Positions 6,301 to 64,000 of a DNA stretch of 64,000 nt are shown piece after piece (positions within the stretch are counted from its first letter, which is position 1; each line of letters begins with the position of its first letter). The notes below the pieces were generated by a model. That model did not search any database. It was not told the origin of the DNA and worked only from the letters and a program-made list of their open reading frames with translations. The translations under genes and the position numbers were made by a program. Source of the stretch: Anaerolineales bacterium (GTDB lineage Bacteria > Chloroflexota > Anaerolineae > Anaerolineales > Villigracilaceae); the NCBI GenBank assembly GCA_024710905.1, contig JANJTV010000065.1, positions 20,985-84,984 of the forward strand, written 5' to 3'.

Positions 6301-7728
6301 CCGCTCAATTCGATCATTGGTTTCTCGCGAGTCATCCTGAAGGGCATCGACGGCCCGATTAACGAACAACAACAACAAGACCTGACCGCAATCTACAATT
6401 CCGGGCAGCACCTGCTCGGCCTGATCAACGACATCCTCGACCTGTCCAAGATTGAGGCCGGTAAGATGGATCTCTCCTCCGATGAGCTGAACGTGGCCGA
6501 CACCATCAACAGCGTCATGTCCACCGCTATCGGCCTGGTGAAAGATAAGCCCATCCGCCTGGAAAAGCATATCGCAGAAGATGTGGTGCACATCCGCGCA
6601 GATGCAATGCGCATTCGGCAGGTTTTGCTCAACCTGATGTCCAACGCGGCCAAATTTACCGAGGAAGGTACCATCACTGTATCAGCGGAAAACAGTACTA
6701 CACCTGATGGCCTGCGTGAGGTGCTGATTAGCGTGACAGACACCGGCCCGGGTATTTCGCCGGAAGACCAGAGCAAACTTTTCCAGGCCTTCTCGCAAGT
6801 GGACTCTTCGCCCACCCGTGCCTCCGGTGGTACAGGCCTGGGTCTTTCCATTTGCCGCCGCCTGGTGGAATTGCACGGCGGGCGGATTGGCATCCATTCG
6901 GTGGTGGGCAAGGGCAGCACCTTCTACTTCACCATCCCGGCTTTTGAGCAGCCCAACCTGCCCTCGGTTAACCCCAATGGTAAAGTGATTGCCTGTATCG
7001 ATGACGATACCCAGGTAACCGGGCTATACCAGCGTTACCTCCAACCACAGGGATACGAAGTGGTTGCCCTGACGAACCCCGCCACGGCCAAAGAAACAGT
7101 GAAACGCATCAGGCCGTATGCCGTCACCCTCGACATTATGATGCCGGGAATTGATGGTTGGAGCATCCTCGAACAACTTAAGAATGACCCGGAAACCCGC
7201 GACATCCCGGTCATTATCTGCTCCATCGTTGAAGAAGAAGAAAAAGGCTTCAGCCTCGGTGCATCGGATTACCTCGTTAAACCGATTATGGAAGAAGACA
7301 TCACCCGTTCATTGCAGCGCCTGAATGGGGATGGAAGCATCCGCCATGTGCTGGTCATTGACGACTCTCCTGACGACCTGAAATTGATGGAGAAGATCCT
7401 GAAAACCGCCGGGCGCTACGAAGTGCAGCTGGCCCAGGGCGGAAACCAGGGCTGGGAGAAACTAAGCGACACCCCGCATCCACAGGCAGTAATCCTGGAC
7501 CTGTTCATGCCAGACCTGAGTGGCTTCGAGATCCTTGAGCGCATGCGCGTCACGCCGGAAATGCGCGACATCCCGGTCATTGTCGTCAGCGGCGCAGAAC
7601 TGACTGTCGATCAGAAAAAACACCTCGAGAACCTGGGCAAACGCCTGCTGCAAAAGGCCATGCTCGGCGAAAAAGAGCTTTTCAGTGAACTGGAAAAAAC
7701 CTTGAAACGCATCGAACAGCCGGAATAA
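3337..7728 (+). CDS. hybrid sensor histidine kinase: basic/Pro-rich tail, multiple GAF, PAS, GAF, HisKA, HATPase, two REC domains
   Basis: H-box FLANMSHELRTPLNSIIGF. HATPase motifs DTGPGISPEDQSKLFQAF and GGTGLGLSICRRLVELHGG. Repeated GAF signatures LSWLGVP...G..LG...VQS. PAS-like NLIENAPEAIVVVN. Two receivers (IDDDTQV...LDIMMPGIDG and VIDDSPDD...LDLFMPDLSG). The start could be ATG 3337 or TTG 3331; either overlaps the ParA stop at 3354-3356. Confidence 0.9.
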   Translation: MSNKKLDKRLGSLFEDIKVEGNETEPAPKPPSPPKASPPPAKKQPVAPRSPKAEKPTPEPKASRPRKAAARPEPASELAVYDESSTTLTIPITTGETWSVLELVDDSRDGWLDEEKALARQVVDQLTLALQNANLFQQTERQNRSLAVLNEMGRELTTQTTLQEISETIFKYTGQLMDVSSFFIAIFNEEADELSFPVVTVDSERISFNPRKIGRGLTDYIIRNRVPLLMNENIPDRMKELGLEFIAIGNNKAPLSWLGVPLQVGEKILGAVVVQSVEHAYLYDKEELELLSSIAYQAAIALESANLFQQTQQQNLELGILNEMANELSTLSNIEGVANIVYKYTGKLMNVTDFFLAVYDQHTNKISFPLVYFDNDPTSIESTDIGEGLSAWVIKNRKTLLLTDNVEERAAEMGIRTLTIGDDEPVLSWLGVPMILGQEVLGLISVQSVVAPRLYGQRQADLLQAIAGQAAIAIQNSRLYEQEQYRRRVADTLSEMARIAGASLDFENVTQNLLNQLPKLLTFHTASIQFVDEQGNRTQAGGMSLHEERKSDLEHPEGHFLRPVDEDPLIREIVRKKKPVIIPDTHNDDRWEVLPETRHIRSWLGAPLMVGNTVIGILILDDEAPFTYTEESIPLAESFCAQAAVAIQNARLFEETQTAAANFRNLIENAPEAIVVVNVENGLFEDPNENAARLYGLPVTELVKVGPAQMSPPLQPDGRPSAEAAMEKIQQAIRGETPVFEWDHINGQGELIPCEVHLSQMPGDRPRVRATVIDITERKKAQEALRKSEEALRRQNEYLATATEVSRLVSSTLDLPTLFSRAVNLIQTSFAYYHVAIFTLDEAGYTAIVREATGEAGEKMRESRHSLVVGSKSVIGNVTSSGQTVVVNNTALDPMHKTNPLLPETRAEAAIPLRIGQRIIGALDIQSRDVGAFQANDITVLETLADQISVAINNAELYEISQQAVEQMRETDRIKTQFLANMSHELRTPLNSIIGFSRVILKGIDGPINEQQQQDLTAIYNSGQHLLGLINDILDLSKIEAGKMDLSSDELNVADTINSVMSTAIGLVKDKPIRLEKHIAEDVVHIRADAMRIRQVLLNLMSNAAKFTEEGTITVSAENSTTPDGLREVLISVTDTGPGISPEDQSKLFQAFSQVDSSPTRASGGTGLGLSICRRLVELHGGRIGIHSVVGKGSTFYFTIPAFEQPNLPSVNPNGKVIACIDDDTQVTGLYQRYLQPQGYEVVALTNPATAKETVKRIRPYAVTLDIMMPGIDGWSILEQLKNDPETRDIPVIICSIVEEEEKGFSLGASDYLVKPIMEEDITRSLQRLNGDGSIRHVLVIDDSPDDLKLMEKILKTAGRYEVQLAQGGNQGWEKLSDTPHPQAVILDLFMPDLSGFEILERMRVTPEMRDIPVIVVSGAELTVDQKKHLENLGKRLLQKAMLGEKELFSELEKTLKRIEQPE

Positions 7729-7748: not shown

Positions 7749-9425
7749 ATGAGCAGCTTTAGTATTGTTTGCCTCGATTGCAACCATAGTACCCGTTACC
7801 ACCCGGCCGAGATCAACTGCCCGCAATGCGGCAGCCAGTGGCGCGAGGTGACTTACCCGTATAAAGAAATTGCCCCCAAACTTAAAGCCGAACTAGCCCA
7901 GCGCCCGTTTGACCTGTGGCGATTTCGCGAATTGCTGCCTGTCCACAACCCGCTGCCAACCTTGCGCATGGGTGAAGGTGGCACGCCGCTCATCCGCGCT
8001 GTTAACCTGGGCGAAATGCTCGGCTGCGAAAACATCTTCATCAAAGATGAGCGGCAGGGGCCAACCTCTTCTTTCAAAGACCGCCAGGCTGCTGTGACCA
8101 TCGCGGCACTCAAAGAAGCGGGCATCACCGAAATGGTGGCTGCCTCGACCGGCAATGTCGCCATCGCCTATTCTGCGTTTGCCGCCCGCGCTGGCATCAA
8201 GCTTTGGGCTTTTGTCACCAGCCTCGTCCCGGCAGTAAAAATGCGTGAAATCGCCCTGTACGGCAGCCAGGTCGTAAAAGTGACCGGTTCCTACGACCAG
8301 GTAAAGCAAATTGCCGCCGAATTTGCCGAAAAACGCGGCCTGTACCACGATCGCGGCGCACGAACAATTACATCGGTCGAGGGGATGAAAACAATCGCCT
8401 TTGAAACGGCCGAGCAACTGACCGACGAATTTGGTCCACTGACAGGGGCGGATGGTACACCTCGCTGGCGGACTCCCGATTGGTACATCCAGGCCATCAG
8501 CGGCGGCCTCGGCCCGGTAGGCATTGCCAAAGGGTTCCGTGAACTCCGCGAGATGGGCTTTGCCGAAGGCCACCCCAAACTGGTTGGCATCCAGGCTGAG
8601 GGCTGCGCCCCGATGGTGCATGCCTGGAAGCAAAACCTTGAAAAAGCCGAACCAGTCATGTCCCCCAAAACCCATATCGAAACCCTGGCCACAGGTACGC
8701 CGGGGCGCGCCTACGAACTCCTGCGCAAGGAAATGCTCGAGTTTGGCGGGCTATTCGAGAGCGTGACAGACGAGGAATCCTTCCGGGCCATGCACGTGCT
8801 CGCGAAAATGGAGGGCATCTCGGCTGAGCCCGCCTCCGGCGCGGCCTTTGCGGGACTCTTCAAGCTGGTGCGAGCGGGCATCATCAAGCCAACCGATGTG
8901 GTCGTCATCAACTGCACCGGCCATACCATGCCTGCCGAGCCATTGGTGCTGGGCAGCGGCTGGGCACGCAATGTCGTCCTGCCTGCTGAACAACCTGAAG
9001 CGCTACCCCAGGAAGACGGCCTGCTGGCTGCCCTGAGCCGGGTCGCGCCAGATCGCTTCCCACGCGTGGCGATTGCCGACGACACGCCGGACGCCCGGCG
9101 CCTGATTCGGCGCATCCTGCAATCTCAGGGTGACTACACGATATTCGAAGCGACCAACGGCAAGGAAGCCATTGAACTGGTCAAGCGTGAACACCCCGAC
9201 CTGCTCATTTTAGACCTGATGATGCCCGAGGTGGACGGGTTTTCGGTGCTGGACGCGCTGAAATCTGACCCGGAAACAGCACAGATTCCCGTGATTGTTT
9301 CAACAGCCAAAGAACTGACCAAGGATGAAAAGGTGCGCCTGCAAGGGCAGATTCAGTCCCTGATGCAAAAAGGTGATTTCCTAAGTGACGATTTCCTTGA
9401 AGAAGTAAAATCCATTATCCGCTAG
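7749..9425 (+). CDS. threonine synthase-like fold-type II PLP enzyme fused to a C-terminal response-regulator receiver domain
   Basis: N-terminal Zn-ribbon CLDCNH...CPQCGSQW. PLP-lysine motif GPTSSFKDRQAAV and ASTGNVAIAYSAFAA. The C-terminal ~120 aa is RVAIADDTPDARRLI...DLLILDLMMPEVDGFSVL...PVIVSTAK, a CheY-like REC domain. Confidence 0.8.
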   Translation: MSSFSIVCLDCNHSTRYHPAEINCPQCGSQWREVTYPYKEIAPKLKAELAQRPFDLWRFRELLPVHNPLPTLRMGEGGTPLIRAVNLGEMLGCENIFIKDERQGPTSSFKDRQAAVTIAALKEAGITEMVAASTGNVAIAYSAFAARAGIKLWAFVTSLVPAVKMREIALYGSQVVKVTGSYDQVKQIAAEFAEKRGLYHDRGARTITSVEGMKTIAFETAEQLTDEFGPLTGADGTPRWRTPDWYIQAISGGLGPVGIAKGFRELREMGFAEGHPKLVGIQAEGCAPMVHAWKQNLEKAEPVMSPKTHIETLATGTPGRAYELLRKEMLEFGGLFESVTDEESFRAMHVLAKMEGISAEPASGAAFAGLFKLVRAGIIKPTDVVVINCTGHTMPAEPLVLGSGWARNVVLPAEQPEALPQEDGLLAALSRVAPDRFPRVAIADDTPDARRLIRRILQSQGDYTIFEATNGKEAIELVKREHPDLLILDLMMPEVDGFSVLDALKSDPETAQIPVIVSTAKELTKDEKVRLQGQIQSLMQKGDFLSDDFLEEVKSIIR

Positions 9426-9432
9426 GAAACCT

Positions 9433-10383
9433 TTGTTCAAAACACCCCAAGCACAAACCGCTGGCATCCTGGCGGCGCTTGCCTCGGCAGTTTTCCTGGG
9501 GCTTGCGCCTGTTTTTGGGCGCTGGGCCATCCTGCTTGGGTTCAGCCCGCTTTCGGTGGTGGCCCTGCGTACCGGCCTGGCCATGCTGATGGTCTTCCTG
9601 ATCATCCTGCTATTCCAGCGCACCTTCCTGTACATCTTTCCAGTCGGCCTGATCGGCTGCCTTCTGGCAGGTGGGATTAATGGCCTCGGGTCACTATTGT
9701 ATTACATGGCGCTGGGCAAACTGCCGGCCAGCATCGGGCAACTGCTCTATTCGCTCTACCCGTTGTTTGTAGCATTATTTTCTATTTTGGATAAACAACC
9801 GATCACCCGCCTGACCATGTTCCGTGTTGGGCTGGCCAGCGTGGCCGTCTTCCTGCTTACCGGACTGGAAGAATTTAATCTTGAGCCCGCCGCAGTATTG
9901 ATGATGATTGCCGCGGCCGCCCTGTATGCCTTGCACATCCCGATCAACCAGCGCGTGCTGTATGAAATCCCCGCCCCGACTGTAACGCTGTACACCCTGC
10001 TGGCCATGACTGCCGTAACCCTGCCCGCTTACCTGCTTTTTGACCGCCAGTTACCCCCGGAAAATGCGAACTGGTGGCCGCTGGTCGGGCTGACGTTGGT
10101 AACGTTCATCTCACGACTGACGCTCTTCCTGGGGATTAAAAACATTGGCGGCGTCCAGACCGCCATCCTCGGGTTGGGGGAACTATTTATCACCCTGCTG
10201 CTCAGTTACTTGCTGCTGGGCGAAACCCTGACCTGGTTGCAGCTGCTTGGCGTGGGTATTTTGGGCTTCAGCCTGATGCTGATCATGTTGGACAAACAAG
10301 ACCCGCAGCGGCGCCGCCCGAAAGGCGGCTGGCTGGCCTGGCTACACCCGCCGGAAATCAACCCCTGGAGCTTGCAGGATTAG
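9433..10383 (+). CDS. EamA/DMT-family transporter
   Basis: 316 aa with about 10 hydrophobic segments forming two similar halves. The TTG start is uncertain. Confidence 0.7.
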   Translation: MFKTPQAQTAGILAALASAVFLGLAPVFGRWAILLGFSPLSVVALRTGLAMLMVFLIILLFQRTFLYIFPVGLIGCLLAGGINGLGSLLYYMALGKLPASIGQLLYSLYPLFVALFSILDKQPITRLTMFRVGLASVAVFLLTGLEEFNLEPAAVLMMIAAAALYALHIPINQRVLYEIPAPTVTLYTLLAMTAVTLPAYLLFDRQLPPENANWWPLVGLTLVTFISRLTLFLGIKNIGGVQTAILGLGELFITLLLSYLLLGETLTWLQLLGVGILGFSLMLIMLDKQDPQRRRPKGGWLAWLHPPEINPWSLQD

Positions 10384-11177: not shown

Positions 11178-12743
11178 TCACTCCTTTATTGGCAATGACA
11201 CCCGGAAACAGGCCCCCGCGCCCTGGCTCCGCAATAAATCCAACCGCCCACCGTGGGCAGTTATGATATCGTAACTGACCGACAACCCCAAACCTGTGCC
11301 GCCTTCTTTCGAGCTGATGAAGGGCTCAAAAATACTTTCGCGCATCTCGTCAGGTACACCCGGCCCGCTGTCGGTGAATAGGATTTCGATCACTTTCTTT
11401 TTCTGCGTAATACTAATGGAAAGATCACCACCCTCAGGCATGGCATCAAAGGCGTTCAAAATAATGTTGATGAAAACCTGCTCCACCTGGTTACTGATCG
11501 CCATCACCGCCGGCAGGCTGGCTGGCCACGAAGTGGTCACACGAATGTCACGTTCCCGCAGCTGTTGGCCCATCAAATCCAGGACGTGCTCCACCAGATC
11601 GAGCACCTGCACCGGGCGGAACTCTGCGCTGGTGCGGTAGAAGTCAAGCATACGCTGCACAGTGGACATCAACCGATCGAGTTCCTGCTTGGTCAGATCA
11701 ATATATTTCTCGCGCATCTCATCCGAGATATCGCCGCGCGTGGCCAGGTGCAGACAGTTACGCACAGATTGCAGTGGGTTATTAATTTCATGTGCAATGG
11801 AGGCTGTCAGGCGGCCGGCGGTAGCAAGTTTTTCGGCCTGTACCAGAGCCGTCTGTGAATCTTCCAATTTTTTGATATAGCGCCGCAACTCGTCATACAG
11901 GTGGGCATTCTCATAAGCCACCGCGCACTGGCGCGCCAGCACCAGGAAAGTCTCAAAATCAGCCATCCTGAAAGGCTGCTGGTCTGCATCTCTGGCAACA
12001 TAAATCACCGGGTGGGTATTTACCAGCCCGGTTGGCACAACCATCATCGAAGCGACACCGGCCAGATCCAATGCGGAAGCGGAACCCGACTCCAGCTGGG
12101 ATTGTGGCCCGGACCATACCGGGGTGCCCCGCTCGTTCGCCAGCCGGATCGGATTTTCACCGTCCAATGAAACCAGTTTCCCACGCCCGTTGACCAGCTC
12201 TATCTCACCCTTTCGTCGCACGCGATAAATTGCCACATTCGGGCAGTTCATCTGGCGCGAAAGGACGGTTAGGATCAGGTCAATTAAAGAGGTGGGGTCT
12301 GTTTCCGAAATCAGGCTTTCAGTCAGTGCAAAAAGCGGCTGGAGGGCCTGCAGGCGGGCAACATCCTGCTTTTTCTGGTACTCGTCAATGGCGCGTTCAA
12401 CGGCATTAAGCAATGACTCGCGCTCAAAGGGTTTCAAGATAAGCCCGTCAACACCCTTGTGCAGTACCTCGATGGCGGTTTCAACGGTACCAAAACCAGT
12501 CATGACCAGCACAGCCATATCCGAATTGCTGGATTTGACCGAGTCGATCACGTCCAGGCCGCTCATGCCGGGCATGCGAATATCGACCAGCAACAGGTCA
12601 ACCTGGGCGTTCTTGAGGTACTCCAGCGCCTTGGGGGGGTCGTTAAAGGCTGCCACATCGTAACCAGCCGCAGTCAACAACCGCTCACACAGCAGCACGA
12701 TGCCGGGTTCATCGTCGATGACCAGCACATTAGGCCGCGACAT
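11178..12743 (-). CDS. hybrid REC-GAF-histidine kinase
   Basis: REC domain (NVLVIDDEP...LLLVDIRMPGMSG), a GAF-like middle region, H-box ASIAHEINNPLQSV, and HATPase DSGPGVP...GGTGLGLSVSYDII. I chose the ATG at 12743 because it gives a 14-nt overlap with the upstream stop; the tracked ORF extends to 12803. Confidence 0.85.
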   Translation of the reverse strand: MSRPNVLVIDDEPGIVLLCERLLTAAGYDVAAFNDPPKALEYLKNAQVDLLLVDIRMPGMSGLDVIDSVKSSNSDMAVLVMTGFGTVETAIEVLHKGVDGLILKPFERESLLNAVERAIDEYQKKQDVARLQALQPLFALTESLISETDPTSLIDLILTVLSRQMNCPNVAIYRVRRKGEIELVNGRGKLVSLDGENPIRLANERGTPVWSGPQSQLESGSASALDLAGVASMMVVPTGLVNTHPVIYVARDADQQPFRMADFETFLVLARQCAVAYENAHLYDELRRYIKKLEDSQTALVQAEKLATAGRLTASIAHEINNPLQSVRNCLHLATRGDISDEMREKYIDLTKQELDRLMSTVQRMLDFYRTSAEFRPVQVLDLVEHVLDLMGQQLRERDIRVTTSWPASLPAVMAISNQVEQVFINIILNAFDAMPEGGDLSISITQKKKVIEILFTDSGPGVPDEMRESIFEPFISSKEGGTGLGLSVSYDIITAHGGRLDLLRSQGAGACFRVSLPIKE

Positions 12744-56526: not shown

Positions 56527-56576
56527 TGCAAGAAGGGTCAAAGTGACGTTACCATTAAAGATGAAGGGAGATCTAA

Positions 56577-56993
56577 ATGGCTGAAAACAAAACCAAACCC
56601 ACCACGGCGTCTGTGGAGGACTTCATTGCCAACATTGAACATCCCCGCCGCCGCAGCGACGCATTGACCGCCCTGAAAATGTACAGGGAAATCACCGGGC
56701 TGAATCCGGTCTTGTGGGGGCCTTCGATTATTGGCTTTGGTTCACTACATTATATGTATGAGACTGGGCGCGAGGGAGACATGCCCGCTGCCGCTTTTTC
56801 GCCGCGCAAAGGGTACATGACCTTTTATGTCGGCGACGAATTCGAAGGCGCAAGCCAGCTCTATGCCAGGCTCGGCAAACACAAAAAATCGGTGGCCTGC
56901 CTGTACATCAACAAACTGGATGATGTTAATCTTGACGTGTTGCGTGAAATCATCACCCGCCAATACCGCAAGGATACGAAATTAAATGAATAA
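56577..56993 (+). CDS. DUF1801 (YdhG-like) domain protein
   Basis: TKPTTASVEDFIANIEHPRRRSDALTALKMY. Confidence 0.7.
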   Translation: MAENKTKPTTASVEDFIANIEHPRRRSDALTALKMYREITGLNPVLWGPSIIGFGSLHYMYETGREGDMPAAAFSPRKGYMTFYVGDEFEGASQLYARLGKHKKSVACLYINKLDDVNLDVLREIITRQYRKDTKLNE

Positions 56994-57405
56994 AAACAAA
57001 CCAGACGCCGCAGGCAAGACCTGGACGAACATCGGATGGGGGTTGGCGATTCTGTTCGTGGGCAGCATCCTTTGGTCGATGTGGGAGGAGACCCTACTAC
57101 CATTGATTCGGTCCGGCAACACCCGCTCCCTGTGGCTGCACCTGGTCGGCATGCCAATCATCCTGCTCGGGACGGGTATCTTTGTGTACGGGGGAATTGT
57201 GTTTGTACGCGCCACCTTTGCAGCCCTGGCAGATTCTGGATTAATCGAGAATATGCGCGTGATCAAAGGCGAACTGGCGGGGGATAAAAGGAAGGCACAA
57301 TGGGCCAATGCCGGCCTGCTGGTGCAATCCTGGCTGCCCGGCCTGGGCTGGCTGGGGTTTGGTTTTGCGCTGATTGCGCTGGGGGGATTTTTGATCAACC
57401 TGTGA
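56986..57405 (+). CDS. four-TM membrane protein; its 3' end is copy 1 of the island-flanking repeat
   Basis: Hydrophobic segments throughout. It ends ...LPGLGWLGFGFALIALGGFLINL. Confidence 0.55.
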   Translation: MNKNKPDAAGKTWTNIGWGLAILFVGSILWSMWEETLLPLIRSGNTRSLWLHLVGMPIILLGTGIFVYGGIVFVRATFAALADSGLIENMRVIKGELAGDKRKAQWANAGLLVQSWLPGLGWLGFGFALIALGGFLINL

Positions 57406-57411
57406 AACGGA
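57334..57411 (+). repeat. direct repeat copy 1 (78 bp, 5 mismatches versus 63521-63598)
   Basis: ctgcccggcctgggctggctggggtttggttttgcgctgattgcgctggggggatttttgatcaacctgtgaaacgga. Confidence 0.9.
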
Positions 57412-57496
57412 ATAAACCGAAAAGGTATTGTAAAAACATCCCATTAAGGGTATAGTGAAATAAAGCACGAACGGCTTTCAAACCAAGGGGTCGGGG

Positions 57497-57679
57497 ATGG
57501 GCCATAAAAAACTGCTCGGTGCAATTGTCCTGAGTACCTGCCCTGTCGTAGCAGGTTGCTCAACAGTTGCGGAACCCACCTTCCCTGAGCCAGCCAGGCT
57601 CAAAACCATATATCTATCCCCACTGCTTCATCCATCCAAAAATCCTGGCTTCACCATAGCGTCAGTCATCCAGTGCTGA
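57497..57679 (+). CDS. possible small lipoprotein
   Basis: The VVAGC lipobox follows a hydrophobic N-terminus. The RBS is weak and coding evidence is thin. Confidence 0.3.
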   Translation: MGHKKLLGAIVLSTCPVVAGCSTVAEPTFPEPARLKTIYLSPLLHPSKNPGFTIASVIQC

Positions 57680-57742
57680 GGCGCGTATCGTGTTGCCTGC
57701 GCCGGGTCAAACCCTGTAGGACATCTCGGGAAGGAGATGGAA

Positions 57743-58300
57743 ATGAAAATTTTCATCGAAGGTGGGTACGAAAACAAACCAGCACTTTCTACATTAAGCA
57801 ATGAACTGTACGGCCGGATGTATGCCTCGCGGGGCATCCGGGATTTTTACTATGGTTTCACAGCCTTTGGGACGGGGTACGAAAAGAACTTCTCACAGAT
57901 TTCCTTTGATGGGAAGTCCACCCAGGCCCTGACGGAGTTCATCAAAATCGTCAGCAGCCGATTCAAGATCTTCCGCGTGGAAGCGGAAGATGAAGAACTG
58001 GAGCAGGAGGCCGTCGCAGCGTGGGAGAAAGACCACACTCAAAACCCAATTCCCAAAAAAGTGGCGTTACCGTTGGTCATACTCAGGCTACCCGCGGAGG
58101 CCGACACGTTCGAAATTTTCGGCAAGAATTATCGATTTAAATCCAGGGACGGCAAGGAACGGCTGATCGTGACCAACAAATATACCCCCGAAGGGTTGGC
58201 GGATGCCAAATCACGTTTCCATCTTGTCAACAGGGACGAGTACAAAACCATCCATGACGAGTTTGGGGCGCCAGAAGAACCAGAAGCGGCGGTTGAGTAA
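57743..58300 (+). CDS. hypothetical protein (island gene 1)
   Basis: GGAAGGAG RBS 6 nt upstream of ATG 57743; an alternative ATG is at 57737. I recognise no motif. Confidence 0.55.
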   Translation: MKIFIEGGYENKPALSTLSNELYGRMYASRGIRDFYYGFTAFGTGYEKNFSQISFDGKSTQALTEFIKIVSSRFKIFRVEAEDEELEQEAVAAWEKDHTQNPIPKKVALPLVILRLPAEADTFEIFGKNYRFKSRDGKERLIVTNKYTPEGLADAKSRFHLVNRDEYKTIHDEFGAPEEPEAAVE

Positions 58301-58318
58301 CCGGAAGGAGAACCCAGC

Positions 58319-58462
58319 ATGGGACGCATTGCACAACTACAGGTGATATGCAAACATTGTGGCAAGACAACCAATGTATTTGTCGAAGAAAGCAACGCAG
58401 CCAGCGCCGTGGTCAAGTGTGAACATTGCAGAAACATCTTTGAGTTTGGCCCTGGCACGTAA
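58319..58462 (+). CDS. 47-aa zinc-ribbon protein (below the ORF-track size cutoff)
   Basis: MGRIAQLQVICKHCGKTTNVFVEESNAASAVVKCEHCRNIFEFGPGT carries two CxxC pairs. GGAAGGAG RBS at 58303-58310. Confidence 0.5.
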   Translation: MGRIAQLQVICKHCGKTTNVFVEESNAASAVVKCEHCRNIFEFGPGT

Positions 58463-58524
58463 TACAAACCCATTGGGTATGTTTCAGGAATACCGCAATG
58501 GGCGATCATAGAAAAGGAGAATCA

Positions 58525-59616
58525 ATGAAAGATGCCCGCGCCGATTTCTTCCGAACAAACTTAAAGGTTCTCTTACTATGCGCCGCCCTGGTTCTCGCTG
58601 GCTGTGCACCGGTCATCTCTACCGAAAACGCGGAGGATTTGGCCTGGCTGAAGACCTACCCGATCGCAGCGAAAAAGTCCTGGGGCGATACAGCCTGGCA
58701 GCACAACAACGACGGGAAATTTTTCGTTTCAGGTTTCGTCCAGAATCTAGATGGGACGATTTCGGGATTCGCCTACGAGTGGGATGTTCGTAACGAAAAT
58801 GGCACGAAATATGACTGGTTGTCAATGGATGGGCAATATTTTCCGGGTACGCCAATCACCTGTCTGGCCGTCTCACCGGATGAAAAGCGCATTGCCCTGG
58901 GCACGCTGGTTGGACCAGTCATCCTGTGGGATGTCAATGCGTCAAACAGCGCCGAGGATGTTTACTACCTCGAAGGACATACCGAGGCCGTCAAGGCTGT
59001 TGCCTGGTCGCCGGACGGCAAGTTGATTGCATCTGGCGGATACGACAACACCGTCCGCGTATGGAACGTGAGCCAGGAGGTTCACTCTGGCGTTGAGCCT
59101 TTGCAGGAGACCTTGCGGCTGGACACAAACTACAAGGTTCAAAGTATCTCGTTTGCGCCAGAGGGGGAGATTCTCATCTTCGGGACGGAGGGCGGCGTCG
59201 CAGCCATTGACCTGGCGACAAACGAGGTCATCCTGGATGTCTCCGGTAAACCACTTGCGCAGCTGGGGCATAGCCTGACATGGTCGCCGGATAAAACGAC
59301 AATGGCAGCCGGGTCATTCGACGGCAAAGTGTTCTTCTTCACGTTCGAGGAGGGCAGGTTCAGTCAAAATGTGGATTTGATCGAAGTCAGCAAGAGTGGA
59401 TCGATCCTTGCCCTGGATTACTCACCCGATGCCACGATGCTGGTTCTTGCTTACCCGAATATGATCCACGTTTGGGATCTGGAAACAGCGAAAACAATCA
59501 AAAGATTCAGCGCAGGGGAAGACCTGTTCTTTAGCAGTGTTTCATGGTCCCCAGATGGCCGCTATATCGCCGTCACCTACAGCGATGGAACGCTGCGCAT
59601 CATTGGGATTGAGTAA
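58525..59616 (+). CDS. WD40 beta-propeller lipoprotein
   Basis: Signal plus lipobox LVLAGC. WD repeats GHTEAVKAVAWSPDGKLIASGGYDNTVRVWNV, ILWDV, IHVWDL and SWSPDGRYIAV..DGTLRI. Confidence 0.8.
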   Translation: MKDARADFFRTNLKVLLLCAALVLAGCAPVISTENAEDLAWLKTYPIAAKKSWGDTAWQHNNDGKFFVSGFVQNLDGTISGFAYEWDVRNENGTKYDWLSMDGQYFPGTPITCLAVSPDEKRIALGTLVGPVILWDVNASNSAEDVYYLEGHTEAVKAVAWSPDGKLIASGGYDNTVRVWNVSQEVHSGVEPLQETLRLDTNYKVQSISFAPEGEILIFGTEGGVAAIDLATNEVILDVSGKPLAQLGHSLTWSPDKTTMAAGSFDGKVFFFTFEEGRFSQNVDLIEVSKSGSILALDYSPDATMLVLAYPNMIHVWDLETAKTIKRFSAGEDLFFSSVSWSPDGRYIAVTYSDGTLRIIGIE

Positions 59617-59680
59617 GTAATGGCTGGCCTGTCGGCATGGCACAAACCAGACGGATAATTCAGAACAACAGGAGGAAGCG

Positions 59681-60190
59681 ATGACAACCACAATTAATGA
59701 TTTAACAATCGCACTACACCAGGCGATTCAGGCAAATGACGCAAAGATGGTGCTGGAAGCACTGGAACATGGCGCAGATGCGAATAGCCGTAATGGCTAC
59801 GGAATCGCTGCCCTAAAGTATGCGATGACTTTTGGCAACGTGGATGTAGCAAAGGCGCTACTCGACCATGGGGCAAAGGTGAAAGACGAGGATATCCTGC
59901 CAGAGCTGGCTGCTTACGGCCGCGGCGGGGCTGAAATGGCCAAGCTGCTGCTGGAGGCGGGCGCCGATGTGAATGAAAGAACCCCGGGAGGGTACACGCC
60001 CCTGATTATTGCAGCTGGTAGGGGCTATACGGATATCGTCAAAGTCCTGCTGGAAGCTGGCGCTGATGTGCATGCAGTAGGCGAAAGTAACCGGAAGGCG
60101 AAAAGCCTGGCATATGAACGCGGCTACCTTGAAACTGCTCGCTTGATTGAAAAATGGGAATCCAGCATGAACAAAAGCAGGAAAGGATAA
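59681..60190 (+). CDS. ankyrin-repeat protein
   Basis: GADANSRNGYGIAALKYAM..VDVAKALLDHGA and GADVNERTPGGYTPLIIAAGRGYTDIVKVLLEAGADV. Confidence 0.85.
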   Translation: MTTTINDLTIALHQAIQANDAKMVLEALEHGADANSRNGYGIAALKYAMTFGNVDVAKALLDHGAKVKDEDILPELAAYGRGGAEMAKLLLEAGADVNERTPGGYTPLIIAAGRGYTDIVKVLLEAGADVHAVGESNRKAKSLAYERGYLETARLIEKWESSMNKSRKG

Positions 60191-60196
60191 TCAAAG

Positions 60197-60577
60197 ATGA
60201 ATAAACTTTTGCTTGATCTTCCTGTTATCAGGGAAGAAAATATCTCAAATTACAGACAGACCATTGTTCGCGCCGAATCACATCCATCCATGTTCGTGGG
60301 TTCGACCGAAGAAACGACAGAATTTGTTGCCAAAATGTCAGAAGAAACCGAGAAATTTATTCTCTCATGTCCAGGAATTGATCGGGTTGAGAAACGGTTT
60401 CTAATGAACGAATATCGCGTTGGAGAAAAAATCCTTGAGATTCAGTATCAACAATTCTGGAAGAATGGAACATCTTCAATCTATTGCGAACACGTAATGC
60501 GGATTGGCGAGGATAAATTTGAAGTATTCGGAAGTGAATCGAGTGCCAAAAGAATGATGGCCTTTCATGCTGGATAA
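60197..60577 (+). CDS. hypothetical protein (island gene)
   Basis: Tight 6-nt spacing after the ankyrin gene. AT-rich codon use matches its neighbours. Confidence 0.5.
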   Translation: MNKLLLDLPVIREENISNYRQTIVRAESHPSMFVGSTEETTEFVAKMSEETEKFILSCPGIDRVEKRFLMNEYRVGEKILEIQYQQFWKNGTSSIYCEHVMRIGEDKFEVFGSESSAKRMMAFHAG

Positions 60578-60716
60578 AAATCATCGCTTTTCCAAATCCA
60601 AGCGAAGATTAATCTCGACGCTGGCGAACGGAAATATCAACGGGTGGGCATCCGCAACCTGGAGGAAACAAACCTGTGAGATTGCCCGGATCTTGTGGAC
60701 ATGAAAGGAGAGAACA

Positions 60717-61712
60717 ATGAATCTGCTAAAAAGTTTGTTTGGACAGGCACAATTAATCACTAAAATCCCTGGGGTTTCAGTCGAGGGATGCTGTTTTATT
60801 CCCAGTGGCAACATTTTCGCTGTCAGCCTTGCCGGAGGGGAAATTCGACTCATTGATATCACGCAGGGCACAATCATAAAAACGCTGGATGGCAAAGTGC
60901 CGGAGCCGGGAAGAATTACAGCGACCATGAATGGCTCACACCTGGCGGTCATCGACTGTGCCCGTGACGGAACAGGGGATGGAGAAAAAGCCGAGATCTG
61001 GGATATTAATACTGGACAGTGCATTCTTGCAACCGAATTAAACGAAAAATCAACATCAATAGCGCTTTCAACAGATTGCACCATTTTGGCTGTGGGACGC
61101 AGGTACGACACGGTTATTGATCTGTATGCCATACCCACTGGTGAGTTAATAAAAACACTCAGTGGACATGGCACCACGCTGGTGCAATCACCACTATTTC
61201 GTGGAAGTGGTACGGTACAAGATTTGGCTTTTTTTGCGCTTGGACCTTATTTGGTTTCAGGGGCGGATGATGGCCAGGCCATACTGTGGAACATCGAAAC
61301 CGGCAAGGGATTTGTCGTAGCAAAACATGACTATATCGTAAAAAGCGTCTGTGTCAGCCCGTTTTCTGACAAGGTGGCAACGGGCGGGTCAGAAAGCTGG
61401 CTGGCAGAGGGACGACCGAACCTGGTTAATGTGGCGGAAGTGCGGATAGAAGGAACAATCAAAACCCTTCTCGACCACTTCGGCATCAAGGCAGAAGATC
61501 CGGTCAAGGCTTTGTCTTTTGACAAACACGGAGCGCTTATCCTAGCGGCGTGTGATGATGACACCTTATGGCTATGGCCGGGCAAGGGTGATGCAAAGCC
61601 CATCAAGCACAACTTCGGGAAGATACTGGCACTTTCGAAGGATGCAACAAAGATTGCTGCAGAAAGAGATGAAACTCTGGCTATATGGGACATCAGTCCC
61701 CTCGTTAAATAG
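60717..61712 (+). CDS. WD40-like beta-propeller protein (cytoplasmic)
   Basis: Repeats ending IRLIDI, AEIWDI, QAILWNI, TLWLWP and LAIWDI. AAAGGAGAG RBS. Confidence 0.75.
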   Translation: MNLLKSLFGQAQLITKIPGVSVEGCCFIPSGNIFAVSLAGGEIRLIDITQGTIIKTLDGKVPEPGRITATMNGSHLAVIDCARDGTGDGEKAEIWDINTGQCILATELNEKSTSIALSTDCTILAVGRRYDTVIDLYAIPTGELIKTLSGHGTTLVQSPLFRGSGTVQDLAFFALGPYLVSGADDGQAILWNIETGKGFVVAKHDYIVKSVCVSPFSDKVATGGSESWLAEGRPNLVNVAEVRIEGTIKTLLDHFGIKAEDPVKALSFDKHGALILAACDDDTLWLWPGKGDAKPIKHNFGKILALSKDATKIAAERDETLAIWDISPLVK

Positions 61713-61798
61713 CGTGGATTCGGTCGATATTGAAATATCAACAGATATATAGCGCTCTATCTAATTAATAGTTGGGTGGCTCATTGAAAGGAGTGTCA

Positions 61799-62743
61799 AT
61801 GGACTTGATTTTCGGTGTTCTTACGCTGGTTTTCGGAGTCTATGCACTCATCAAAGGACGACTCCGGTTAAGTAAGAAATATGTCTTGGAAGGTAATTCA
61901 GCAAAATATGCTGGGTTTTTGCTTGTGATAGCCCCAATAATTGGTGGGATTCTTACTTTAAATGGGCAGATAGATTCAGCCCTATTTGGTTGTTCATGTT
62001 ATAGCATAATCGGCGTATTGGCTTTTGCCGTTTTTCAGATGTGGAACTCCAGAGGGTCAGCGCAGGTGAAAACACAGATGAAAAATGAGCCTGCCATATC
62101 AGAAAAAAGGGAGCCTGCCCAATCGCATGTGACACAGATACAACCAACCACATCAAGTGAGAGTCACAAACAAAGATTGCCAGATGCCAATGTCAATACC
62201 CAAACTGATCAAAAAGAATTGCATCCGAAAGATCTGATAGATCCGCAATCAACATCCATTTGCCCGAAATGTGGAAATATTGGATTGCCTAACGATAAGT
62301 TTTGTCGAAAGTGTGGAAATGCAATAAAATCAGAAATTCGATGTGAAAAATGCGGCAATATCGTTCAGCCTAAAGACTTATTTTGCGTAAAATGCGGCTC
62401 TCGTCTAAGTAGGAAAAATGAGCACGAAGCAACCTTCGAGTGTCTCGTTGCAGAATTAATCGAGATTGGGAAAAACACAAAATCGTTCAACGAAGGAGAT
62501 ACCTACTATTATCGACGCAAGGGGGAAGGCATTGGATTAGGTGAAGATTGGGATGCTCGAACGAGAGAAATTGGCGACGAACTTTATAGAATGGGAGCAA
62601 ACAAAATCCAGTTGATGCAGGAAGCGCATAATAGTGTTGTGAAAGTGCTCGGCTCGATTGCAGGGCGTTGCCTGGGGGCACATTGGCATGAAATTGGTAA
62701 GGAGCAATGGAAACAGGGAAAGGGTGAGTGCTGGCTTTTTTGA
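61799..62743 (+). CDS. membrane protein with a double zinc-ribbon and a C-terminal unknown domain
   Basis: Three N-terminal TM segments. CPKCGN..CRKCGN..CEKCGN..CVKCGS. AAAGGAG RBS 5 nt before ATG 61799. Confidence 0.65.
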   Translation: MDLIFGVLTLVFGVYALIKGRLRLSKKYVLEGNSAKYAGFLLVIAPIIGGILTLNGQIDSALFGCSCYSIIGVLAFAVFQMWNSRGSAQVKTQMKNEPAISEKREPAQSHVTQIQPTTSSESHKQRLPDANVNTQTDQKELHPKDLIDPQSTSICPKCGNIGLPNDKFCRKCGNAIKSEIRCEKCGNIVQPKDLFCVKCGSRLSRKNEHEATFECLVAELIEIGKNTKSFNEGDTYYYRRKGEGIGLGEDWDARTREIGDELYRMGANKIQLMQEAHNSVVKVLGSIAGRCLGAHWHEIGKEQWKQGKGECWLF

Positions 62744-62952
62744 GTGTTGGTTTTACCAACCAAAAAATGATTTAATTTCACGCGCCGCCGAACCAAAGGT
62801 TAAATGAAACATAACCTCGAAGGCTAGCCAAGAAAACCCTTGTACCAACTCTTTGACAATGGCCCAGATGGAGAGAAAGGGACTCGCTGATTGATTAATA
62901 CGCTACAAAAACCTCCACCATCTTGATCGCCAATCTCTGGAAAGGAGAGACC

Positions 62953-63456
62953 ATGAAACACACCAAAGGGTATGTTTTCTTGATTGGGGTGTTATTGAGC
63001 AGTATCCTTTTAGTTTCTTGTGACCCTGGGAAATCTTCGTCGTCTTCCACAACTGGAACGATAACGGGAATAGTTCTTGATGATCATGGGAAACCGCTGG
63101 GAAATATCCACGACAATGAAGTGTTGGTGGTGGCTCTGTACTGCCTCGATGAAAATTCAACTATCGAATGCCTTCACAAAGACTTCTGGGATATTGATCT
63201 GGACGTTCTTCTGGATTCCATTTGTGAAATTAATGACTCCCGAGACGATTGTTTACTCCACCTGGGAAAAAGCGCTGCTTCTGTAGAAATAGATGGAAGT
63301 TACACGATCACGGATGTCCCGCCGGGAGAGTATGGGCTTGTGTTGATCTATAAGGGGACTGGCTTTATGGGAACAAGCCTTAAACGTGATGTTGACCCCG
63401 TGCAGGCTAGCAGAGTGATCAAGTGCGATATCGAGACGGAGCTCATTCGAAAGTAA
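62953..63456 (+). CDS. lipoprotein with a carboxypeptidase-regulatory-like beta-sandwich
   Basis: LLVSC lipobox. GTITGIVLDDHGKPLGN and DGSYTITDVPPGEYGL motifs. AAAGGAGAG RBS. Confidence 0.55.
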   Translation: MKHTKGYVFLIGVLLSSILLVSCDPGKSSSSSTTGTITGIVLDDHGKPLGNIHDNEVLVVALYCLDENSTIECLHKDFWDIDLDVLLDSICEINDSRDDCLLHLGKSAASVEIDGSYTITDVPPGEYGLVLIYKGTGFMGTSLKRDVDPVQASRVIKCDIETELIRK

Positions 63457-63520
63457 GTTTTTCGATTTTGATAAAGAGTATTAGACTCGATAGACTGCTG
63501 GCCTGCGACTACGAGCCTGT

Positions 63521-63598
63521 CTGCCCGACTTGGGCTGGCTGGGGTTTGGTTTTGCGCTGATTGCGCTCGGGGGATTTTTGATTAACCTGTGAAGCGGA
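63521..63598 (+). repeat. direct repeat copy 2
   Basis: ctgcccgacttgggctggctggggtttggttttgcgctgattgcgctcgggggatttttgattaacctgtgaagcgga. It would encode the same C-terminal peptide, LGWLGFGFALIALGGFLINL followed by a stop. Confidence 0.9.
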
Positions 63599-63673
63599 GG
63601 AAAGACCTGCCCTGCATCTTTGCATTAAAGCCAGGCCGGTATTAATTCTGCCTGAGAACATGACATTCATCCA

Positions 63674-63702
63674 TTGACCCCCCACGGGCGGGATGCTATA
63701 AT
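63674..63702 (+). promoter_or_regulatory. sigma-70 promoter TTGACC-17-TATAAT for the GntR-family gene
   Basis: Near-consensus hexamers with 17-nt spacing, 39 nt upstream of the ATG. Confidence 0.6.
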
Positions 63703-63740: not shown

Positions 63741-64000
63741 ATGTTACGCGAACGCACCGCCCCTGAGAGTCTTTCGGAATTCCTTCGTTACCTGGCCAGC
63801 CACCCACAGGCCGAGAACGAAGCCTTGCCCTCGTTAAATACCCTGAGCGCCGAGTTAGGCATCAGCGTGGCCGGGTTGCGCGAACAATTGGAAGTGGCCC
63901 GCGCCCTCGGCCTGGTGGAGGTGCGCCCGCGCACCGGCATCCGCCGCCAGCCATACTCCTTCCTCCCGGCGGTGCGCCAGAGCGTGGGCTATGCCATGGC
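63741..64000 (+). CDS. GntR/FadR-family transcriptional regulator, N-terminal fragment (runs off the window)
   Basis: Winged-helix LPSLNTLSAELGISVAGLREQLEVARALGLVEVRPRTGIRR. Confidence 0.8.
   Translation, partial: MLRERTAPESLSEFLRYLASHPQAENEALPSLNTLSAELGISVAGLREQLEVARALGLVEVRPRTGIRRQPYSFLPAVRQSVGYAM

Follow-up and report, generated by a model that had tools for sequence, protein, structure and literature searches.

In Streptococcus, the elements ICESt1 and ICESt3 use the 3′ end of the fda gene as their target. Islands that carry no integrase and whose borders are a tRNA gene and a repeat of the 3′ end of that gene, as in Prochlorococcus for example, are read as the remnants of phage or element integration. 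Cis-mobilizable elements (CIMEs) form a recognised class of decayed elements that retain their attL and attR attachment sites but have lost their integration genes (PMC5704250). In Escherichia coli K-12, the icd gene extends into the prophage e14, while a C-terminal pseudogene, icdC, lies at the far end of the prophage; the two icd copies differ by few, mostly synonymous changes, and e14 encodes its own integrase and excises after SOS induction (PMC13626634). Here, we describe an island of about 6.1 kb in an uncultured member of the Chloroflexota, Anaerolineales bacterium (assembly GCA_024710905.1), which lies between two copies of the 3′ end of a gene for a small membrane protein, hereafter TM139. 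The stretch analysed, referred to as the window, comprises 64,000 nucleotides of contig JANJTV010000065.1, which measures 98,555 bp. The island is probably an old and now fixed remnant left by site-specific integration of the e14/icd type, and as such resembles a CIME. The features on which this reading draws are the following:

56986..57405, + strand: target gene TM139, intact, its product a membrane protein of 139 aa for which three hydrophobic helices are predicted
57309..57416, + strand: left direct repeat, attL-like, consisting of the last 32 codons of the target gene, the stop codon and 11 nt
57344..57406, + strand: high-identity core and probable crossover region, 63 nt with two synonymous mismatches, holding a perfect block of 37 nt
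57417..63495, + strand: foreign island body of about 6.1 kb, in which nine open reading frames (ORFs) all read along the + strand, with no mobility gene among them
63496..63603, + strand: right direct repeat, attR-like, in which a 3′ fragment of the target gene stands alone behind an in-frame TAG
63674..63702, + strand: sigma-70-like promoter of the GntR gene in the presumably native right flank, TTGACC-17-TATAAT, 11/12 matches, extended -10
63741..64000, + strand: 5′ part of a GntR/FCD-family regulator gene (Pfam GntR) in the same flank, running off the window

The initial annotation of this locus described direct repeats of 78 bp at 57334-57411 and 63521-63598. Realignment reproduces this gap-free match with its five mismatches (57341, 57343, 57381, 57396 and 57407), and reveals that the homology is longer, covering 108 nt (57309-57416 and 63496-63603) with 15 mismatches, or 86% identity. 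The edges of the repeat are sharp, because in-register identity beyond the 108-nt limits drops to 5-11 of 30 positions on either side. A perfect block of 37 nt (57344-57380 and 63531-63567) is common to both copies. A 36-nt probe taken from this block finds two sites in the 64 kb at up to three mismatches, a number for which shuffled sequences give an expectation of 0.00 (n = 100), and short-word BLAST detects no weaker third copy within the island or the window. The left and right copies alike encode the C-terminal peptide LGWLGFGFALIALGGFLINL followed by TGA, as had been noted at the outset.

The mismatches are distributed unevenly along the repeat, with ten in the first 35 nt, two in the next 63 nt and three in the last 10 nt. 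The transition from 10/35 (57309-57343) to 2/63 (57344-57406) is stepwise (Fisher p = 0.0005), and both mismatches in the 63-nt core, which runs through the stop codon, are synonymous. In the divergent arm, the left and right copies are identical at 18 of 30 positions and so resemble each other no more than the left copy resembles orthologues with about 57% amino acid identity (16-17 of 30); in the core, left and right agree at 68 of 72 positions, whereas orthologues agree with each other at 51-56 of 72. The right arm encodes 'RA', in agreement with the RAW of the family consensus and unlike the QSW of the resident gene, and therefore comes from another orthologue rather than from a decayed left copy. 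Such a pattern would be expected of two hybrids with their junctions inside the 63-nt core: a left copy in which the native gene continues into an end brought by the element, and a right copy in which an element-borne mimic of the gene end continues into the native end and its downstream DNA.

The segment between the two repeat copies is compositionally foreign. The initial annotation had proposed a check by GC and tetranucleotide composition, and the tetranucleotide distance reaches z = 15. The GC content of the island is 0.48 versus 0.565 for the window. Among the native genes from nuoB to TM139, the GC content at third codon positions (GC3) is mostly 0.69-0.74 for the larger genes (TM139 itself, 0.70), and the GntR fragment reaches 0.79; the island genes fall into a left half with values of 0.49-0.63 and a right half with values of 0.37-0.49. 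Measured against the first 55 kb of the window, the tetranucleotide distance climbs from background to z = 3 for 57-60 kb and to z = 7-15 for 59-64 kb. In the 60-nt flanks of the left copy, GC content is 0.53 upstream and 0.38 downstream, and in those of the right copy it is 0.35 upstream and 0.48 downstream. The flank composition thus shifts in opposite directions across the two copies, and each copy is therefore a native/foreign hybrid, like attL and attR. Overall, the locus combines gene-end repeats, an intact target gene plus an orphan end and foreign DNA bounded by the repeats, features that characterise integrated elements. The repeat-bounded composition, the stepwise identity and the opposite switches in flank GC are three independent lines of indirect evidence that support the earlier proposal of an integration into the 3′ end of a gene by an element that carried a replacement end.

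The target gene starts within an overlap with the stop codon of an upstream DUF1801 gene, and TM139 belongs to no Pfam or NCBIfam family. Its 38 homologues occur in Chloroflexota-type metagenome bins, the nearest non-self ones at 57-62% identity; those with a name are assigned to Ardenticatenaceae and Chloroflexota, and the single genome match is a Promineifilaceae metagenome-assembled genome (MAG). TM139 can be aligned over its full length with 26 members of the family, among which conservation is highest in the C-terminal helix, the part that the repeat encodes. The right copy of the repeat is an orphan fragment of 32 codons, TAGLRLRACLPDLGWLGFGFALIALGGFLINL followed by a stop, with an in-frame TAG upstream at 63491. 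The fragment, which lies some 80 bp ahead of the GntR promoter, matches the last 32 residues of TM139 at 78%. This promoter had been called well formed, with a start at 63674, and the call is confirmed by the TTGACC-17-TATAAT match given above.

The most probable course of events would begin with a circular foreign element whose attP site mimicked the last ~100 bp of a TM139-type gene. Conservative site-specific recombination, most probably catalysed by a tyrosine recombinase, would have taken place in the terminal ~20 codons of the host gene and inserted the element there. The host gene would have stayed intact because the element brought a near-identical replacement end, which would now make up the left repeat from the crossover onward; the displaced native end would have been left behind as an orphan in front of the GntR promoter, as today's right repeat. 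An integrase would once have been present. This recombinase and any transfer genes would have been lost later and the cargo reshuffled gene by gene, and the present outcome would be a fixed, vertically inherited and no longer mobile island of 6.1 kb.

Sister strains carry the island as well. The 90% cluster of TM139 comprises the source sequence and one variant on two Logan contigs (L007 and L008), which are 99.2% and 99.1% identical to the window, respectively, and both continue from TM139 into island sequence. They thus provide independent assemblies of the left junction, in the filled state, and all three contigs that carry TM139 at at least 90% identity are filled. The divergence between the window and L007/L008 is about 0.7% in the island, much the same as in the flank background (about 0.5%). 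A tract at 56541-58187 stands out with about 2.5% divergence, 41 substitutions in 1.65 kb or about five times the density of the surrounding 10 kb. The tract spans the left junction, including DUF1801, TM139, the left repeat and the first larger island gene, unk187, and its substitutions in DUF1801 and TM139 are mostly synonymous (16 of 24 differing codons). Its simplest reading is an import by homologous recombination from a more distant lineage; since the tract crosses the junction, this lineage would likewise carry the island at this site. In the sister strains, the left copy of the repeat has extra substitutions at 57336 and 57359. The latter position belongs to the perfect 37-nt block, a sign of drift more than of the upkeep of a working attachment (att) site.

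More distant relatives provide information on the surroundings of the target gene. An exact look-up of TM139 gave no match, and a scan of genome collections returned a sole homologue, 59% identical and in a different context; other homologues (46-57% amino acid identity) have unrelated neighbourhoods. The GntR ORF of the window is 70% identical at the amino acid level to an FCD regulator near the TM139 homologue in two contigs from another genus (L002, 4433-10429, and L003, 1308-7304), where the GntR/FCD regulator lies about 5 kb upstream of the membrane-gene homologue. The gene order in L002 and L003 is GntR/FCD regulator, two pyruvate:ferredoxin-oxidoreductase-type genes, an MFS transporter, an RF-1-domain protein and the membrane-gene homologue, so that the genes flanking the island are loosely linked there, but in reverse order. 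This linkage lends loose support to the notion that both flanks of the window are native neighbours. In another contig (L016, 10001-14813), the membrane-gene homologue is followed by a gene for a 186-aa protein of unknown function and a convergent gene for a 1203-aa CHAT-NB-ARC-TPR protein, which suggests that the region downstream of the membrane gene is variable in other lineages too. In a Promineifilaceae MAG (L006, JBGTCV010000032.1), the intergenic regions contain repeated copies of a palindrome of the form GGAAACGGCCGTTTCC, for example at 7375-7402, 8070-8100, 9803-9830 and 12194-12224, reminiscent of repetitive extragenic palindromic (REP) elements.

The cargo of the island consists of nine ORFs on the + strand, which occupy its 6.1 kb almost entirely, the non-coding gaps summing to less than 1 kb:

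57497..57679, + strand: 60-aa ORF, doubtful as a gene, with a lipoprotein-like signal (VVAGC) and no family match
57737..58300, + strand: unk187, 187 aa, from a very small family, with an N-terminal ferredoxin-like fold in the model
58319..58462, + strand: zinc-ribbon ORF, 47 aa, with a weak match to Zn_ribbon_4
58498..59616, + strand: WD40 beta-propeller lipoprotein, 372 aa (Pfam WD40, E = 5e-34; signal LAGC)
59681..60190, + strand: ankyrin-repeat protein, 169 aa (Pfam Ank, E = 1e-23)
60197..60577, + strand: unk126, 126 aa, a stand-alone domain (GC3 0.37)
60717..61712, + strand: second WD40 beta-propeller protein, 331 aa (Pfam WD40, E = 2e-17)
61772..62743, + strand: membrane protein, 323 aa, with a double zinc ribbon and an unknown C-terminal domain (Pfam DZR, Zn_Ribbon_1)
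62923..63456, + strand: lipo177, lipoprotein-like, 177 aa, the true start probably being a Met that gives 167 aa

Judged from its relatives, which lie in unrelated contexts, the cargo is a gene-by-gene mosaic. Five relatives of unk187 are found among 5.8 billion proteins. One of them, at 55% identity (L009, 10001-10579), is located in a prophage-like region of a contig with a GC content of 0.35, between phage-like replication and repressor genes and an LlaJI-type restriction-modification system, a context that hints at an accessory gene of mobile elements; the remaining relatives are single and occur in unrelated contexts. The AlphaFold model of unk187 has a pLDDT of 74 and no match in the PDB at E < 0.02, and by this model the protein is not a recognisable recombinase. 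The small zinc-ribbon ORF (CxxC...CxxC), which lies between unk187 and the WD40 gene, is below the ORF-length cut-off; in L008, a gene of 69 aa is called from the same start. The relatives of lipo177, at 82% nucleotide identity, come from two other metagenomes, on contigs with a GC content of 0.47. Here, the homology is confined to 62915-63488 (L013, 760-1334; L015, 408-981), that is, to the gene plus some 10-30 bp on each side, with unrelated neighbours, and it stops 8 bp before the right repeat. By these alignments, lipo177 is a mosaic unit the size of a single gene that lacks any recognisable recombination site.

The gene for unk126 starts 6 bp after the ankyrin-repeat gene. Its domain is found elsewhere fused to HEAT repeats or to a zinc ribbon (26 cluster representatives), and a metagenome scan gave no match. 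The AlphaFold model is confident (pLDDT 95, pTM 0.87) and predicts an alpha+beta fold with a five-strand sheet, for which neither the PDB (best E = 0.3) nor BFVD (best E = 0.07) offers a significant structural match.

None of the + strand ORFs of the island encodes an integrase, transposase, relaxase or phage function according to Pfam, NCBIfam, PADLOC and PHROGs, and antisense ORFs of at least 75 aa have no Pfam match. The longer ORFs of the 27 kb upstream, which were judged partly from the Pfam marks of the matching L007 genes, encode housekeeping and accessory enzymes and no recombinase. The window contains no tRNA genes, and the island borders match no Rfam family apart from one chance-level match (E = 0.31). 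The earlier statement that no integrase, transposase or tRNA is located inside or beside the segment thus holds for all of the visible sequence, which to the right of the repeat amounts to 400 bp only. With respect to a prophage or plasmid origin, no DNA match is found in 72,556 plasmid and 50,697 phage records, and four cargo proteins have no relatives on viral contigs.

Several classes of elements were considered and rejected. Because the array of same-strand ORFs and the gene-sized mosaicism suggested cassettes, the island was compared with an integron cassette array or a cluster of attC sites lacking an integron integrase (CALIN); by a coarse test made without an attC model, the intergenic gaps contain no recurrent attC-like inverted repeats. 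An insertion sequence or transposon does not fit, in that the ends of the island have no terminal inverted repeats (end-to-end local alignment score of 8 versus a shuffle mean of 8.3), the duplication is about 100 nt long and imperfect, and no transposase domain is present. An integrative mobile element exploiting Xer (IMEX), which would use the host XerCD at dif, is at odds with a repeat that has no dif-like inverted arms and consists of coding sequence of the target gene. The two GC strata of the island raised the possibility of a tandem accretion of two elements, for which an internal att copy is lacking. Finally, the search for a hidden recombinase among the antisense ORFs, the zinc-ribbon ORF and the models of unk187 and unk126 gave no relevant domain or match.

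It is important to point out that a number of observations weigh against a past site-specific integration. The island holds no integrase gene or pseudogene, and no relics of other mobility genes are seen in it. Perfect inverted arms of at least 5 nt, which often flank the overlap region of tyrosine recombinases, are absent from the repeat unit, and none with a spacer of up to 12 nt occurs in either copy. The right junction is seen in the source contig alone. In the collections searched, neither an empty site nor an attP site or a second insertion was found, the core having no exact match in JGI metagenome contigs, and no circular junction is on record; the case for a past site-specific recombination therefore derives from the anatomy of the locus. 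In addition, five other loci with TM139 homologues have no adjoining integrase and no duplicated gene end, so that the TM139 gene does not emerge as a recurrent integration target.

The same footprint of hybrid direct repeats around an intact gene would be expected from a Campbell-type event, in which a circle with ~100 bp of gene-end homology integrates by a single RecA-dependent crossover. Such an event needs no element-encoded recombinase, in keeping with the absence of one, and it would be compatible with a repeat that lacks inverted core-type arms. It does not explain why foreign DNA should hold exactly the terminal ~100 bp of the gene, ending about 10 bp past the stop codon, unless this had been an attP site before, and ~63 nt of near-perfect sequence within 108 nt at 86% identity are, as a matter of general knowledge, short for an efficient RecA crossover; we consider this route unlikely. 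Alternatively, the island could still be mobile as a non-autonomous, CIME- or satellite-like element with functional attL and attR sites, served in trans by a recombinase of the genome or of a visiting element. A class of att-only elements exists (PMC5704250), and both repeats are well kept, including the 63-nt core with its two mismatches and the perfect block of 37 nt. The sister-strain substitutions at 57359 and 57336, however, look like drift, all three contigs with this gene are filled, the divergent recombination tract spans the filled junction, the core has no copy in JGI metagenome contigs as attP, empty site or second insertion, and relatives of the cargo in the same arrangement have not turned up elsewhere. 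We therefore regard continuing mobility as rather improbable. To our knowledge, no non-autonomous elements of the CIME or satellite type have been described in Chloroflexota.

An origin in situ would make the right fragment the relic of a tandem paralogue or of a partial duplication, and the intervening genes the products of unrelated insertions. The mosaic nature of the cargo with its two strata (GC3 0.49-0.63 on the left versus 0.37-0.49 on the right), and single genes whose relatives occur in unrelated contexts with gene-limited homology, would be compatible with such a history. A decaying duplicate, however, should diverge evenly, whereas the mismatches are clustered (p = 0.0005) and the synonymous sites of the core are near identical next to an arm as diverged as that of orthologues with ~57% amino acid identity; moreover, the switch in composition falls inside the repeats, and the other family members examined show no tandem paralogue or duplicated end. 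These points leave an in situ origin improbable. The contig is derived from a metagenome and its right junction is without independent confirmation, and a mis-join at a short shared sequence would produce a spurious island. Yet two independent assemblies from other runs show the left junction as well, the shared perfect block is only 37 nt long, two chimeric joins at one sequence would be required, and homologues of GntR and the membrane gene are neighbours in another genus as well, all of which makes an assembly artefact very improbable.

Three fates had been offered for the element in the initial annotation, namely decay, mobilisation in trans and a mechanism not encoded by recognisable genes. 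Decay is favoured because the mosaic cargo is devoid of mobility relics, the left repeat is drifting, the recombination tract extends over the filled junction and all three contigs that carry the gene are filled; mobilisation in trans, for which there is no positive support, is less probable, and a mechanism of an unrecognisable kind is unsupported.

What the locus reveals is an accessory island gained by horizontal transfer and, probably, the site at which an integrative element attaches, in an uncultured lineage of Chloroflexota whose relatives at the family level are Promineifilaceae and Ardenticatenaceae; beyond annotation, it matters little. Should an integrase of this specificity turn up in that genome or its community, its att site would be given directly by the 63-nt core. 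The cargo holds two small unannotated protein families, of which unk126, with its confident fold and no structural match, may merit separate attention.

How does the island compare with known systems? Like tRNA-bounded islands, it combines atypical composition and accessory genes with a duplicated gene 3′ end and, as is often the case there, has no integrase; unlike these, its target is a protein-coding membrane gene, and the window is free of tRNAs. With the CIMEs derived from ICESt1 and ICESt3 at fda, it shares a target in the 3′ end of a protein-coding gene, and like CIMEs in general it retains attL/attR-like repeats, which would be putative att sites, and has no mobility genes. CIMEs are known by their relatedness to an integrative and conjugative or integrative and mobilizable element and by tandem accretion with one, whereas the island shows neither derivation from a known element of either kind nor a tandem array with an internal att site; it also differs in that no parent element, conjugation-gene relics or internal third att was found, and in its host phylum, the Chloroflexota. 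Like e14 and phage 21 in icd, the element would have integrated into the 3′ end of a protein gene with a replacement end, the displaced native end being kept; unlike e14, the island is without recombinase or phage genes and measures 6 kb rather than 15 kb. Taken together, it is a genomic island of an ordinary sort, without an integrase and framed by a duplicated gene end, and a new example of its kind in a poorly studied phylum.

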